Shown here piece after piece: positions 3,496-29,848 of a stretch of 32,000 nucleotides of DNA. A model generated the notes under the pieces. The model did not search any database. It was not told the origin of the DNA and worked only from the letters and a program-made list of their open reading frames with translations. The number at the start of each line of letters is the position of its first letter. Position 1 is the stretch's first letter. Position numbers and translations under genes: made by a program. Source of the DNA: a bacterium (GTDB taxonomy: Bacteria > Bacillota > Clostridia > TANB77 > RGIG9151); contig CAVHFU010000007.1 of the NCBI GenBank assembly GCA_963635575.1, positions 14,229-46,228 on the forward strand, given 5' to 3'.

Positions 3496-3535
3496 AAAAA
3501 AGAGTATAATATTAGCTCTATTATACTCTTTTTTT
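3496..3535. terminator. Bidirectional rho-independent terminator-like hairpin downstream of the DUF234 ATPase-like gene
   Basis: aaaaaagagtataat / loop attagctct / attatactctttttt. The stem is 15 bp, with an A-run on one side and a T-run on the other. Confidence 0.6.
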
Positions 3536-14012: not shown

Positions 14013-14396
14013 TTTAACCTCCTTTTAAATGTTATCTAAGCATATAAAAGATAAACATTTTTATATTTATTTTAATATTTAATTGATAATCGAAAAATTC
14101 TTTTTTTAATATTATTAAAATATTAAAGAGTAATAATAGTAATAGGTATGTTGATAATGTTGAAAAGTTGATTTTTTTCAATTATAAACGGAATGTAGTA
14201 GTTAATAATATGAGGATAAAATGTTATAACTTATCCACATTATAAAATTTGTGTGTGGAAATAAAGTTTTTAACATGTTTTTTACAATATATCAACTGCC
14301 ACATGTGGATAAATAAAAAACCAGTAATAATGCTAATTGTAGGTTGTGAAAAACCGCTTGATATGCTATTTCTCGTATTGTGGAAACTGTGGAAAA
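14013..14396. promoter_or_regulatory. oriC part II (dnaA-dnaN intergenic region): DnaA boxes plus an AT-rich unwinding region
   Basis: Perfect boxes are TTATCCACA at 14231-14239 and TGTGGATAA at 14304-14312. Near-matches are at 14149-14157 (TGTTGATAA), 14211-14219 (TGAGGATAA), 14254-14262, 14379-14387 and 14388-14396. An extremely AT-rich tract spans about 14040-14150. TAGTAGTTAATAATA at 14196-14210 is a possible DnaA-trio. Confidence 0.75.
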
Positions 14397-19859: not shown

Positions 19860-19860
19860 A

Positions 19861-19904
19861 AAAACGCCTTAAACGCAGGATACATTTGCGTTTGAGGCGT
19901 TTTT
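19861..19904. terminator. Bidirectional terminator between spo0A and the convergent gene
   Basis: aaaacgccttaaacgca / loop ggatacatt / tgcgtttgaggcgtttt. The stem is about 17 bp with one G-U pair, flanked by A and T runs. Confidence 0.75.
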
Positions 19905-24725: not shown

Positions 24726-26096
24726 ATGGAAAAAACCACAATCGCTGCAATTGCTACATCTCCGGGAATCGGAGGAATAGGAATTATAAGGATTAGCGGA
24801 GAGGAAGCATTTTCGGTCGTAGCAAATATATTTTGCCCGAAGGATGCTTTTTTTGATGTTAGAAATCCTAGGTCTAATGTAATTAAATATGGATATATCG
24901 TTGATGGAGAAAACAAAATCGACGAAGTTTTAGTGTCGTTTTTTAAAGCCCCATATTCATATACAACAGAGAACACAGTAGAAATAAATAGTCATGGTGG
25001 AACTGTTGTAATGCGAAAGATTTTAGATAAAGTTATAGAATCAGGTGCAAGGATAGCAGAGCCGGGGGAATTTACTAAAAGAGCTTTTTTAAATGGAAGA
25101 ATAGATTTGGCACAGGCCGAATCAATAATAGATATAATAACTTCAAAAACTGACAAAGCAAGAAGTGTAGCTATGAGTCAGTTAACAGGATTTTTATCAG
25201 AAAAAATAAATGAAATTCAAAAAGATGTTTATGATGTCCTGATCCAAATAGAAGCCGGAATCGATTATCCTGAGCATGAGATAGAAGATGTTACACGTGA
25301 AACATTACGAGATGTTTTGACGAAAACGAAGGAAAAGTTAGATAAGTTATATAATTCTTTTGATGAAGGAAGAGTGCTAAAAGAAGGCGTAAGGACAGCA
25401 ATTTTAGGTAAACCTAACGTTGGGAAATCTTCTTTAATGAATGTACTTTTAAGAGAAGAAAGAGCTATAGTAACTGATATTCCGGGTACAACTCGTGATA
25501 CGATAGAGGAATTTGTAAATATAAAAGGAATACCGCTTAGAATAATAGATACTGCCGGAATACGAAAGACAGAGGATATTATTGAAGAAATTGGTGTGAA
25601 CAAGGCCAAAAAAGAAGTTAATGATGCCGATATGATAATTGCTGTTTTTGATGTCTCAAGAGAGTTAACAGAAGAAGATTTTGAAATAATTAATCTTATA
25701 AAAAATAAGAAATCTATAATTCTAGTAAACAAAATTGATTTAGATGAAAAATGGAACATATCAGAAATTTTTGGAGATAAAAAAGTGTTTAATATTTCAG
25801 CAAAGTCAAAAATTGGAATAGATGAAATTGAAGATGAAATTGAGCGACTTTGGAAAAACAACGATATGGATACAGGAGAAAATGTAATAATATCTAATAT
25901 GAGGCATAAAAACTTAATACTGGAAGCTAGTAATAGCACGAAAAATGCACTCGAAGCTCTAAAATGCGATTTGCCGGTCGATATGGTGTCTATTGATATA
26001 AAATCATTACTAGATAGCTTGGGAGAGATTACAGGGCAAAATGTGAGCGAAGAGACTATAAACGGCATTTTTTCACGCTTTTGCTTAGGTAAGTAA
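24726..26096 (+). CDS. mnmE: tRNA modification GTPase MnmE (TrmE)
   Basis: G-domain motifs GKPNVGKSSLMN, DTAGIR and NKIDL. C-terminal CLGK. Confidence 0.95.
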   Translation: MEKTTIAAIATSPGIGGIGIIRISGEEAFSVVANIFCPKDAFFDVRNPRSNVIKYGYIVDGENKIDEVLVSFFKAPYSYTTENTVEINSHGGTVVMRKILDKVIESGARIAEPGEFTKRAFLNGRIDLAQAESIIDIITSKTDKARSVAMSQLTGFLSEKINEIQKDVYDVLIQIEAGIDYPEHEIEDVTRETLRDVLTKTKEKLDKLYNSFDEGRVLKEGVRTAILGKPNVGKSSLMNVLLREERAIVTDIPGTTRDTIEEFVNIKGIPLRIIDTAGIRKTEDIIEEIGVNKAKKEVNDADMIIAVFDVSRELTEEDFEIINLIKNKKSIILVNKIDLDEKWNISEIFGDKKVFNISAKSKIGIDEIEDEIERLWKNNDMDTGENVIISNMRHKNLILEASNSTKNALEALKCDLPVDMVSIDIKSLLDSLGEITGQNVSEETINGIFSRFCLGK

Positions 26097-28002: not shown

Positions 28003-28695
28003 ATGAATAATTCTAAAAAGTTAGTTGAAGATGCAAAAAAAATAAATGTTGAATTAGATATGTTTCACGTGAAACAATTTAAAAAATATCAAGAACTATT
28101 ACTAGATTGGAATGAAAAAATAAACCTAACTGCAATTACAGAAGAAAATGATATTATAACAAAACATTTTATTGATTCTTTAACTTGTTTAAAATATATA
28201 GATAACAAGAGCAAAGTGATAGACGTTGGTACAGGAGCAGGTTTCCCCGGCATACCAATAAAAATTGTTTCACGTGAAACAAAACTTACTTTGTTAGATT
28301 CGTTAAACAAAAGAATTGTGTATTTAAATGATGTCATAGATAAATTACAATTAACAGGGGTTGAAACTATACATAGCAGAGCCGAAGAACTTAGTAAAGA
28401 TAAGAAATACAGAGAAAAATTTGATATAGCTACTGCAAGAGCAGTTGCCAACTTAAAAGTTTTATCTGAATATTGTTTGCCATTTGTAAAAGTTGGCGGT
28501 AAGTTTATATGTATGAAAGGCTCGGGATATGAAGAAGAAATAAATGAGGCAAAGGCTCATATTGGAAATCTTGGTGGAAAGATATCTAAAGTAGAAGAAA
28601 TTATTTTGCCTGAATCGGATATAAAGCACACGATAATTATTATAGATAAAATAAGCGAGACACCAAAGCAATTCCCAAGAAGAAAAATAAAGTGA
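28003..28695 (+). CDS. rsmG: 16S rRNA (guanine527-N7)-methyltransferase RsmG (GidB)
   Basis: SAM-binding DVGTGAGFPGIP. Conserved position after mnmG. TGA stop at 28693-28695. Confidence 0.93.
   Translation: MNNSKKLVEDAKKINVELDMFHVKQFKKYQELLLDWNEKINLTAITEENDIITKHFIDSLTCLKYIDNKSKVIDVGTGAGFPGIPIKIVSRETKLTLLDSLNKRIVYLNDVIDKLQLTGVETIHSRAEELSKDKKYREKFDIATARAVANLKVLSEYCLPFVKVGGKFICMKGSGYEEEINEAKAHIGNLGGKISKVEEIILPESDIKHTIIIIDKISETPKQFPRRKIK
28061..28076. promoter_or_regulatory. parS site (perfect palindrome TGTTTCACGTGAAACA) inside rsmG
   Basis: Exact 16-bp palindrome matching the Firmicute parS consensus TGTTNCACGTGAAACA. Confidence 0.85.
28266..28281. promoter_or_regulatory. parS site (perfect palindrome) inside rsmG
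   Basis: TGTTTCACGTGAAACA. Confidence 0.85.
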
Positions 28696-28708
28696 GTTTG
28701 AAAAAACA

Positions 28709-28923
28709 TATAAAACACCCTGTGTAAATAAATGTCGCTCCGACGAACTACGTTTTACAAGGTTCTAACCAAATTACCGACCGTCGCTCAAAGTCGACAT
28801 CCTTGTCGACTTTCGCTCAAAATTTCATCCGCGAAATTTTGACGGTCTTGCCTACGGCAAATTTGGAGAACCGGACTAAAACTCCGTAAAGTCGCTCTAT
28901 TTATTTACACAGGGTGTTTTATA
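28709..28923. repeat. 215-bp GC-enriched structured element with perfect 25-bp terminal inverted repeats; candidate ncRNA, MITE or elaborate bidirectional terminator
   Basis: The left TIR is tataaaacaccctgtgtaaataaat (28709-28733) and its exact reverse complement lies at 28899-28923. An inner helix pairs 28761-28779 with 28855-28872. CCGTC (28781-28785) pairs with GACGG (28841-28845). Two central hairpins occupy 28790-28813 and 28819-28840. (G/T)TCGCTC occurs four times. There is no convincing ORF or RBS. Confidence 0.6.
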
Positions 28924-28952
28924 CTTTATAATGAAAACCAATAATATAAAAA

Positions 28953-28968
28953 TGTTTCACGTGAAACA
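28953..28968. promoter_or_regulatory. parS site (perfect palindrome) upstream of parA
   Basis: aaaaaTGTTTCACGTGAAACAttttt; the palindrome is extended by flanking A and T runs. Confidence 0.85.
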
Positions 28969-29050
28969 TTTTTTTGCATTCTTCTTCCTTTTTAGAAAAA
29001 AATATGCTAGAATGTGGAGGAAGATATACGTGATGAAGGGAGATACTTCT

Positions 29051-29830
29051 ATGGGAAAAATTATAGCAATTACAAACCAAAAGGGCGGAGTTGGGAAAAC
29101 TACAACCGCAGTAAATTTAAGTGCATCGTTAGCTGTTAAAGGGAAAAAGGTATTACTTGTAGACACTGATCCACAAGGAAATGCTACTAGTGGCCTTGGA
29201 ATTGATAAATCAAAAGACAATAAAAACATTTATTCTGTTATGATAGACGGAGAAACGATAAAAGACTGCATACAAGAAACAAAGATAAAAAAGCTAAATG
29301 TCTTACCATCCAGTATTGAACTTGCGGGAGCAGAAATAGAATTGGTTAGCGTTATGGCAAGAGAATTTGTATTAAAAACAGCGTTGGAGGAAGTAAAAGA
29401 TTTATATGATTATATAGTAATCGATTGCCCACCCTCACTAGGACTAATTACATTAAACTCGCTGTCAGCTGCTAATTCCGTATTAATACCTATTCAGTGT
29501 GAGTTCTATGCACTAGAAGGATTGGGTCAGCTTATTAACACAATAAATTTAATAAAGAAAAAAATAAATCCCGAACTTGAAATTGAAGGCATTGTGTTAA
29601 CGATGTACGAGTCGAGAAGAAAGCTTTCAAAAGAAGTGGCTGAAGAAGTAAAAAAACATTTTAAGGATAAGGTTTATCCTGTGATGATTCCTAGAAATGT
29701 AAGGTTAAGTGAGGCTCCAAGTCATGGGTTACCCATTGTTGTTTACGACAAGAATTCCATAGGTACTAAGAGTTATAATGACTTAGCCAGATTAGTACTA
29801 AAAGCAAATACAAATAAGGATAAAAAATAA
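29051..29830 (+). CDS. parA: Chromosome partitioning ATPase ParA (Soj)
   Basis: [18 protein letters not shown] (deviant Walker A) matches the Soj N-terminus, with GAAGGGAG 8 nt upstream. Alternative in-frame starts exist at 29030 (GTG) and 29033 (ATG). The track's start at 28931 would run through parS and is rejected. Confidence 0.9.
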
Positions 29831-29832
29831 AA

Positions 29833-29848
29833 TGTTTCACGTGAAACA
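29833..29848. promoter_or_regulatory. parS site (perfect palindrome) between parA and parB
   Basis: TGTTTCACGTGAAACA, lying between the parA stop and the parB RBS. Confidence 0.85.

Follow-up and report, generated by a model that had tools for sequence, protein, structure and literature searches.

Between rsmG and parA, in a spacer of 355 bp, a 32,000-nucleotide stretch of DNA from a bacterium of the class Clostridia (positions 14,229 to 46,228 of contig CAVHFU010000007.1, assembly GCA_963635575.1; hereafter the window) carries a 215-bp foldback element at window positions 28709-28923. Judged by its sequence and its covariance-model score, this element is a copy of the known structured-RNA family TwoAYGGAY (RF01731), an orphan motif. 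A preliminary description of the window, made from its letters, had entertained the possibility of a single syntenic non-coding RNA; that expectation fails, as a close relative has dispersed copies at unrelated loci. The element is hence not a single-copy syntenic gene: it is a dispersed, non-coding foldback repeat built around a TwoAYGGAY core. The reading that we prefer, though we hold the case for it to be evenly balanced, is that this repeat of an orphan RNA class is probably mobile, would receive the locus-specific part of its stem from the target and probably acts as a terminator or insulator at rsmG-parA.

TwoAYGGAY in at least one species of gut Clostridia thus behaves as a dispersed repeat and not as a gene. 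Its location at terminator positions, its occurrence in both orientations and its locus-specific stems have to be explained by any function proposed for it, CsrA titration included. For the window, it means that a copy of a family, not a locus-specific regulator of chromosome partitioning, is lodged between rsmG and parA.

The TwoAYGGAY core and its sense strand

We scanned the whole window against the covariance models of Rfam 15 and recovered a single match, to TwoAYGGAY (Table 1), at 52.0 bits (gathering score 43) and with an E-value, for the window as a whole, of 6.5e-6. The resemblance to this family, which the preliminary description had suggested, is thereby confirmed, and it lies on the minus strand. 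No other relevant match at E<=10 was obtained in the region 28600-29050, be it on the plus strand or to the 6S and Csr/Rsm families, and the latter, which had been named along with TwoAYGGAY, thus find no support.

Apart from the score above threshold on one strand, the likeness to TwoAYGGAY includes GGA(U) in two terminal hairpins, a very long closing helix (P1), tandem G.A pairs of the kind remarked upon in the family (PMC4333381), a fitting host range (Clostridia, human gut) and the presence of several copies per genome, as seen with the seed sequences that are multi-copy in Psychromonas ingrahamii. P1 is 25 bp long here and 25-30 bp across the complete copies. Since the 2010 description of the family gives P1 as 'often very large (e.g., 24 base pairs...)' (PMC2864571 supplement), the 25-bp 'termini' that were initially noted, and that we find to be perfectly complementary with 165 nt between them, are a family trait. 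The element departs from the family in being longer than the model, past which it reaches by 36 nt on each side, and in loops that are not strictly AYGGAY: GCGGAU and AAGGAU/AGGGAU retain the GGAU and lack the AY prefix. However, gut seed members of the family also show the loops CAAGGAU and CAAGGAC, for which reason the name is looser than the family. A further difference is that the outer part of the stem is unique to each copy here, whereas outer sequences are common between copies in the Psychromonas and gut seeds. Part of Rfam since 2010, the family was termed 'relatively unexplored' as late as 2025. A preprint of September 2026 (10.64898/2026.09.22.753630), represented here by its term counts only, has counts of 52 for TwoAYGGAY, 14 for reverse transcriptase, 5 for phage, 3 for toxin, 2 each for retron and palindrom, and 1 each for transposase and mobile; in the same counts CsrA, transposon, recombinase, integrase, nuclease and terminator stand at 0. 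These counts give no hint that the preprint interprets the family in terms of CsrA, transposons or terminators.

In the minimum-free-energy (MFE) folds of both strands the element forms an outer helix, a GGTTCT.../...AGAACC helix, a GACCGTC/GACGGTC helix and two hairpins (28790-28813 and 28817-28842), with the outer part of P1 being locus-specific. The earlier fold by hand is thus reproduced in its helices and its two hairpins; it had missed a small third hairpin at 28848-28860. The MFE is -88.5 kcal/mol on the plus strand (z -11.8) and -90.7 kcal/mol on the minus strand (z -9.8), with none of 200 shuffles being equally stable in either case. The structure remains when the core is folded without the arms (z -3.3), and takes the shape of a rod whose end is a junction bearing the two GGA-loop hairpins. 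The GC-richness that had been ascribed to the interior holds, with a GC content of 0.40-0.45 across 28700-28899 versus about 0.21-0.38 in the flanks, as does the display of GGA on the minus strand in two hairpin loops, AAGGAU and GCGGAU. Altogether, the sense strand has four GGA motifs: the hairpin loops hold two, and the other two lie in a bulge and an internal loop. GGA is retained in all copies.

Covariation was judged on an alignment of 12 sequences with 500 shuffles and slid-register controls. In P1 94% of the cells are paired and 22 of the 26 pairs are changed on both sides, while in the core 99.4% of the cells are paired with five compensatory pairs; neither result was attained in any of the 500 shuffles, and slid registers scored far lower. 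The helix GGTTCT..CCAAATT/AATTTGG..AGAACC has 99.3% of its cells paired and one compensatory change from G-C to A-U, and columns 83-151 of the GACCGUC/GACGGUC helix are G-C in seven copies and A-U in five. The stem of the third hairpin is invariant in the 12 copies and its loop varies (GNA). Orthologues of the window copy add a compensated A-T to G-C change in P1, as well as an A-U to G-C change at columns 43-180 that supports a bulged helix, AC[GGA]GUUUUA/UAAAACGU. The check on homologous copies that the preliminary description had called for thus came out in favour of the structure: at the level of sequence, covariation supports all helices.

The substitutions also differ in their consequences for the two strands. 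One-sided changes in the core stems result in G.U on the minus strand at six sites versus A.C at two. Likewise, hairpin 1 of contigs L038, L039 and L044 has two transitions that leave U.G wobbles when the minus strand is folded and C.A mismatches when the plus strand is. The loop of hairpin 2 is polymorphic among the orthologues, being either AAGGAU or AGGGAU, with the GGA kept in both. A heptamer, KTCGCTC, had been reported four times in the element and likened to iterons. The four occurrences are real (28734, 28783, 28812 and 28891, out of seven matches in the window, with 2.3 expected per 32 kb); the iteron analogy does not hold, for these are rather GAGCGA segments of the sense strand that face each other. 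Segment 1 faces segment 4 such that C-G pairs flank tandem G.A/A.G mismatches, an arrangement available to the minus strand only, as the other strand has pyrimidine mismatches at the same positions. In L018 the pair at columns 39-189, next to segment 1, has been replaced by a compensatory A-U. Hairpin 2 is enclosed in a like manner by segments 2 and 3, with invariant GC:GC pairs at 114-144 and 115-143. Taken together, the G.U wobbles, the tandem G.A pairs, the GGA loops and the strand of the Rfam match point to the minus strand as the folded, or sense, strand.

Dispersed copies with locus-specific stems

The metagenome-assembled genome (MAG) CAKSUD01, from an uncultured Clostridia bacterium of the Hadza gut, is 95-98% identical to the window in amino acid sequence over the syntenic block. 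An exact 20-mer of the core is found on 11 of its contigs, which gives at least 11 copies. The TwoAYGGAY gathering score is passed by seven MAG copies (49-59 bits) and by three further orthologues, and one MAG copy is cut by a contig end. A decayed copy (L011:7053-7247, minus strand) has additional arm mismatches and lacks hairpin 2 owing to a deletion of precisely 29 nt between two direct TTTGAGCGA (GAGCGA) repeats.

Comparison of the copies reveals a sharp division between a shared interior and private ends. The cores, of about 173 nt with invariant AAAT...ATTT ends, are 88-96% identical among eight paralogous copies (mean 91%), while over the outer 16 nt of the arms the identity between copies is 33%, as between random sequences. 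In the ten complete copies the arms have 0-2 mismatches and their outer 10-20 bp are unique to each locus. The inner 4-14 nt of the arms are common between copies, with a subset having the 14-nt inner sequence CAGTATATATAAAT, and wherever copies differ in the inner arm the difference is matched in the partner arm. The window arms (AAAACACCCTGTG...CACAGGGTGTTTT) have the form A-tract/GC stem/T-tract and no other match in the window at <=3 mismatches (0 expected). Arm sequences were also not found elsewhere in 295 kb of species sequence, including the flanks of other copies, where they would be a sign of transduction. A 20-mer from the P1 arm has no match in GTDB genomes, which fits arms that are specific to locus and strain. 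In keeping with the initial remark that no target-site duplication was evident, neither the window arms nor any of the ten complete copies is flanked by a direct repeat. Five of nine arms begin with TA, so that a palindromic TA duplication could be hidden there; in the window copy, a palindromic duplication of TA or TATA could hide within the repeat ends.

Each copy follows a stop codon, or in a single instance a tRNA, at a distance of 0-60 nt. Convergent genes surround four of them; of the others, three (the rsmG-parA copy included) are antisense and four sense relative to the flanking genes. No protein family recurs beside the copies. Upstream of the 5' arm there is only locus-specific sequence with no conservation across copies, and hence no family promoter. 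The whole element has no match in phage and plasmid collections and a gut seed member of the family likewise has none; the core 20-mer gives nothing but chance coding matches in JGI metagenomes and no match in IMG/VR. Matches to the same 20-mer in GTDB genomes of Campylobacter, Treponema and Levyibacteriota were set aside as chance, having no Rfam match.

At the rsmG-parA site itself, the copy is found in all the sampled strains of the species and is missing from sister species. It is present in the window orientation with the same arms on 16 contigs (the window, L001, L007, L013, L027, L028 and L037-L046; RsmG at least 94% identical). In the sister species (RsmG 83-86% and ParA 93% identical; L002-L004 and L029-L031) the spacer is 169-176 bp and has no element. 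Two contigs from independent samples (L005:1310-1438 and L006:1301-1434; RsmG 96% identical) have a near-identical core at the same site in inverted orientation, with an unrelated left arm (…AAGAGCAAGGAGTGCAATATATAATAAAT). Both contigs end inside the element, and searches for its right half from the parA side and via cluster members recovered only the common allele. Contigs L005-L007 and L037-L046 derive from Hadza and other gut samples. Two of the contigs of this locus are irregular. In L040 (1600-1900) the rsmG-side half runs on into the flanking sequence of copy L026, with the crossover falling within the core that both share; this is either an assembly chimera or a real recombination between copies. 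In L046 (2100-2158) the right arm ends after 9 nt and is followed by unrelated sequence.

Proposed mobility, possible origin of the stems and alternative explanations

We propose that the TwoAYGGAY core, which has no coding capacity, is or once was mobile and would have spread by inserting just past stop codons, into terminator regions rich in hairpins; insertion would occur in both orientations and leave no target duplication, with the target supplying the locus-specific part of the stem. Such a stem might arise by invasion of the loop of a pre-existing terminator-like hairpin, the helix being perfected later; alternatively, an inverted copy of one flank might be made at insertion, or imperfect palindromes might be perfected by template switching. 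The GGA loops and tandem G.A pairs of the sense strand would be recognised, on the single-stranded fold, by a trans-acting partner, for which CsrA is the published candidate. At the rsmG-parA site the long helix with its A- and T-tracts would serve, incidentally, as the rsmG terminator or as an insulator. This is most probably its role there to judge from the sequence, and it would be the most direct local effect because the sense strand is antisense to both rsmG and parA. That the element terminates in both directions, as the preliminary description had suggested, is plausible. If transcribed, the long perfect helix would be expected to be a substrate of RNase III. It is also conceivable, albeit rather unlikely in our estimation, that TwoAYGGAY constitutes a distinct kind of structure-guided mobile DNA, in which a core of about 170 nt enters hairpin sites after stop codons and gains a perfect stem of 25-30 bp without duplication through an enzyme acting in trans. 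If true, structure-guided mobility would make of this orphan RNA motif a novel type of bacterial repeat, one inserted by a chemistry that has not been described. Of the features seen, the copy-specific perfect stems are the only potentially new one.

Several known systems invite comparison with such a repeat. Repetitive extragenic palindromic (REP) sequences and REPINs, with their RAYT gene, are similarly dispersed extragenic palindromes 3' of genes that are non-coding, form single-strand hairpins and lack target duplications. However, REPs are conserved units of 20-40 nt and REPINs are doublets of these, whereas here it is the interior, and not the arms, that is conserved, and no RAYT gene was seen. 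IS1397 and ISKpn1, which enter REP loops, and the class C group II introns, which sit next to terminator stems, likewise integrate at hairpin- or terminator-like sequence, such that host stems flank or adjoin the insert. Unlike our element, they encode their own enzyme, and the group IIC introns insert after the stem and not in it; moreover, in contrast to such hairpin-targeting elements, the helix here is continuous with no loop remnants, and no enzyme is known for it.

Native hairpins with stems of at least 11 bp number 53 in 96 kb, with 17 of them having stems of 13-18 bp, and are mostly of the A-tract, GC stem and T-tract form seen in the window arms. The species is thus rich in long terminator-like hairpins, which speaks for pre-existing hairpins as the source of the stems. 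Within the window, native terminator-like hairpins of 17-18 bp with A-tract and T-tract shoulders are located at 3496-3534 and 19860-19904. The locus-specific parts of the arms, at about 16-24 bp, are at or past the longest native hairpins (18 bp). A number of observations weigh against our preferred reading. The helices are continuous without leftover loop bases (28 of 28 positions paired in L021 and 29 of 29 in L024), while insertion into a loop predicts unpaired remnants. In L018, L019 and L024 the element is adjoined by a separate, ordinary and intact terminator, and the inverted core of L005/L006 with its unrelated left arm is a simple fit to neither arm model. The neighbourhoods of the copies, as far as we examined them, contain no gene for a transposase, a reverse transcriptase or a HUH enzyme. 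A simple terminator scan of the locus returned no terminator, because the 'loop' spans 165 nt. In addition, no empty allele was obtained from a close strain at any site. As the spacers of the sister species are too diverged for junctions to be read, the argument for mobility is drawn from copy number and from the absence in sister species. Finally, the core of the window copy is 97.1% identical to its MAG orthologue; the flanking genes reach 90-95% and the adjacent spacer 92%. The higher identity of the core implies either constraint or exchange between copies, and could hence reflect a host-level RNA function or gene conversion and not a selfish history.

An empty allele of the young L021 copy was sought by way of its amidase neighbour; the DNA after the stop codon proved to be entirely different in the relatives. 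In three lineages, represented by L021 (5560-6000), L047 and L048, the gene order diverges exactly where the amidase gene ends (its 3' end), after which come cysS, a 182-residue open reading frame (ORF) with rpsB, or uvrA; the MAG element sits at this breakpoint. A comparison of the L005 left arm and the window right arm with the sister-species spacers for native-like sequence was dropped after shuffling (p 0.08-0.6). In gut seed members of the family, conserved sequence lies outside the paired segment that varies, which means that ordinary compensatory drift can also yield variable stems.

Two alternatives that we consider improbable but deserving of a hearing address the stems and the RNA, respectively. 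Under the former, the foldback element would make its own arms, one flank being copied in inverted form by fold-back priming or template switching, so that the stem is perfect at birth. Near-perfect helices that run without interruption across the junction of conserved and locus-specific sequence (as in L021 and L024), unique arm parts that compare with native hairpins as given above, copies adjoining an intact separate terminator, inner-arm changes that are matched in the partner and the want of a direct target duplication are all in its favour. Nevertheless, no empty site showing a single native arm was found and the test for native sequence is not significant; many arms resemble ordinary A-tract/stem/T-tract terminators, and the gut seeds show that variable stems arise by ordinary compensatory drift. 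Inverted-flank copying is not known as an outcome of transposition among bacterial repeats. Under the other alternative, which we likewise regard as doubtful, the element is a CsrA-sequestering small RNA, whose GGA loops bind a CsrA dimer and whose many copies jointly form a sponge of the CsrB type. Hairpin 2, with ACAAGGAUGU, matches the core of the CsrA consensus from systematic evolution of ligands by exponential enrichment (SELEX), RUACARGGAUGU. Hairpin 1 has GCGGAUG, the loop GGAs are about 28 nt apart and two more GGAs are in a bulge or internal loop, so that several single-stranded GGA motifs are present. The retention of GGA in all copies, including through the AAGGAU/AGGGAU polymorphism, and a core more conserved than the neighbouring genes speak for the same idea, as does the fact that CsrA sequestration has been put forward as a hypothesis for TwoAYGGAY (PMC4333381). 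The sequence points away from a promoter and terminator belonging to the element, however: there is no conserved promoter and, at the rsmG-parA locus, no minus-strand promoter-like site. The orientation relative to host transcription looks random, with the sense strand being antisense here and at two other loci, and CsrA has a count of 0 in the term counts that represent the above preprint. No csrA gene was found in 295 kb of species sequence, which is uninformative as it covers only part of the genome. The CsrA-sponge RNAs CsrB, RsmY and RsmZ share with the element hairpin-loop GGAs at a spacing that a CsrA dimer could bridge, with one loop fitting the high-affinity consensus. They differ in being single-copy genes with many GGA repeats, their own regulated promoter and a terminator, whereas the present element exists as at least 11 dispersed, randomly oriented units, each with two loop GGAs, and has no conserved promoter.

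The same inverted repeats could be viewed as the transposase-binding termini of a deleted DDE insertion sequence that is mobilised in trans, i.e. of a classical miniature inverted-repeat transposable element (MITE). The element is indeed small, non-coding, multi-copy and intergenic, with inverted-repeat ends and presence/absence between relatives; a subset of copies has the inner CAGTATATATAAAT in common and TA stands at the start of five of nine arms. Yet copies with about 91% identity in the core have unrelated outer 10-20 bp, so that shared termini are lacking, and there is no unambiguous target duplication at ten copies (a palindromic TA being possible at five). The interior structure is conserved, covarying and strand-specific, none of which a terminal-repeat transposase requires, and phage and plasmid collections returned no match. 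Given that the arms differ between copies and are not accompanied by a duplication, the plain MITE that the preliminary description had kept as its fallback does not stand, and we judge this explanation very improbable. The comparison with the Correia elements of Neisseria, ERIC and RUP points the same way: these too are intergenic repeats of 100-250 bp with inverted ends, RNA folding and presence/absence between relatives, and can provide promoter or terminator signals, but they have identical ends in every copy and a TA duplication, while here the arms are copy-specific and no duplication is seen. Least probable of all, to the point that we give it hardly any credence, is an inverton, in which a recombinase would flip the core between the inverted repeats and thereby alter the expression of parA. 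Inverted repeats do surround a segment of about 165 bp, and both orientations of the core occur at the rsmG site in different strains. There is also a promoter-like match on the plus strand across the right arm and the flank (TTTACA at 28904-28909, 17 nt, TATAAT at 28927-28932; 11/12), which is aimed at parA and has its -35 in the arm and its -10 in the flank, with both hexamers retained in the orthologues. Against this, all 16 contigs with the window arms have one orientation, the flipped core of L005/L006 comes with a different arm, the core has no strong promoter inside it and no recombinase is nearby. Furthermore, a native extended -10 promoter of parA (TGCTAGAAT, about 29006-29014) lies downstream of the element and is conserved in the species without it.

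Genomic setting and minor observations

The gene order around the element is rnpA, yidC, jag, mnmE, mnmG, rsmG, the element, parA, parB and DUF4446, with dnaA/dnaN at 12.9-15.7 kb; no mobile-element gene is present in the 32-kb window. Five perfect parS sites (TGTTNCACGTGAAACA; 25289-25304, 28061-28076, 28266-28281, 28953-28968 and 29833-29848) are spread over 4.6 kb around mnmE, rsmG, parA and parB, against 0.07 expected by chance, and a sixth with two mismatches lies at 718-733. The site at 28953 is retained in the sister species without the element. The placement of the element in the 'noc slot' and its bracketing by parS, to which the preliminary description had drawn attention, are hence both correct as to position, but they are incidental, given that unrelated loci harbour the other ten copies.

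Table 1. Coordinates of the TwoAYGGAY element, its structural parts and adjacent features in the window
Feature	Position	Strand	Remarks
TwoAYGGAY (RF01731) match	28745..28889	-	Model positions 1-168, full length
P1 left arm	28709..28733		25 nt, 100% complementary to 28899-28923; 3' arm on the sense (minus) strand
P1 right arm	28899..28923		5' arm on the sense strand
Conserved core (AAAT...ATTT, 173 nt)	28730..28902	-	Unit common to all copies
Hairpin 1	28817..28842	-	Stem UCAAAAUUUC/GAAAUUUUGA; sense loop GCGGAU (plus ATCCGC, 28827-28832)
Hairpin 2	28790..28813	-	Stem AAAGUCGAC(A)/(U)GUCGACUUU; sense loop AAGGAU (plus ATCCTT, 28799-28804)
Small third hairpin at junction	28848..28860	-	Sense UUGCC-GUA-GGCAA (plus TTGCC-TAC-GGCAA); predicted fold
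Helix GACCGUC/GACGGUC	28779-28785 with 28841-28847	-	Closes the junction bearing hairpins 1 and 2
Helix GGTTCT..CCAAATT/AATTTGG..AGAACC	28761-28775 with 28860-28872	-	MFE fold
(A)GAGCGA segment 1	28891..28897	-	Adjoins the sense-strand 5' arm
GAGCGA(A) segment 2	28812..28818	-	Between hairpins 1 and 2
GAGCGA(C) segment 3	28783..28789	-	3' side of hairpin 2
GAGCGA(C) segment 4	28734..28740	-	Plus GTCGCTC; faces 28891-28897
Bounding sequences for possible larger units			AAATnnAGCGAC...GGAGCGnnATTT
rsmG, upstream gene	28003..28695	+	Pfam GidB, E 3e-57; stop codon 13 nt before the left arm
parA/soj, downstream gene	29051..29830	+	Pfam AAA_31, CbiA, ParA
Perfect parS	28953..28968		30 bp right of the element; context, outside the repeat

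Two further observations were made on other contigs. Palindromes of 13-15 bp at L019:234-266, L021:2880-2916 and L021:3086-3122 share GACCAAAAGG/CCTTTTGGTC, and the arms of the L021 element contain a similar AACCAAAAAG; these might constitute a second palindromic motif that is repeated, or else a family of operators. Relatives whose amidase is 89-91% identical have, between the amidase gene and uvrA, a non-coding, GC-richer stretch of about 630 nt (L048:2527-3157, also in L049-L055). It has no Rfam match at the gathering score or at E<=1; it is conserved across several samples and may be an undescribed structured RNA.

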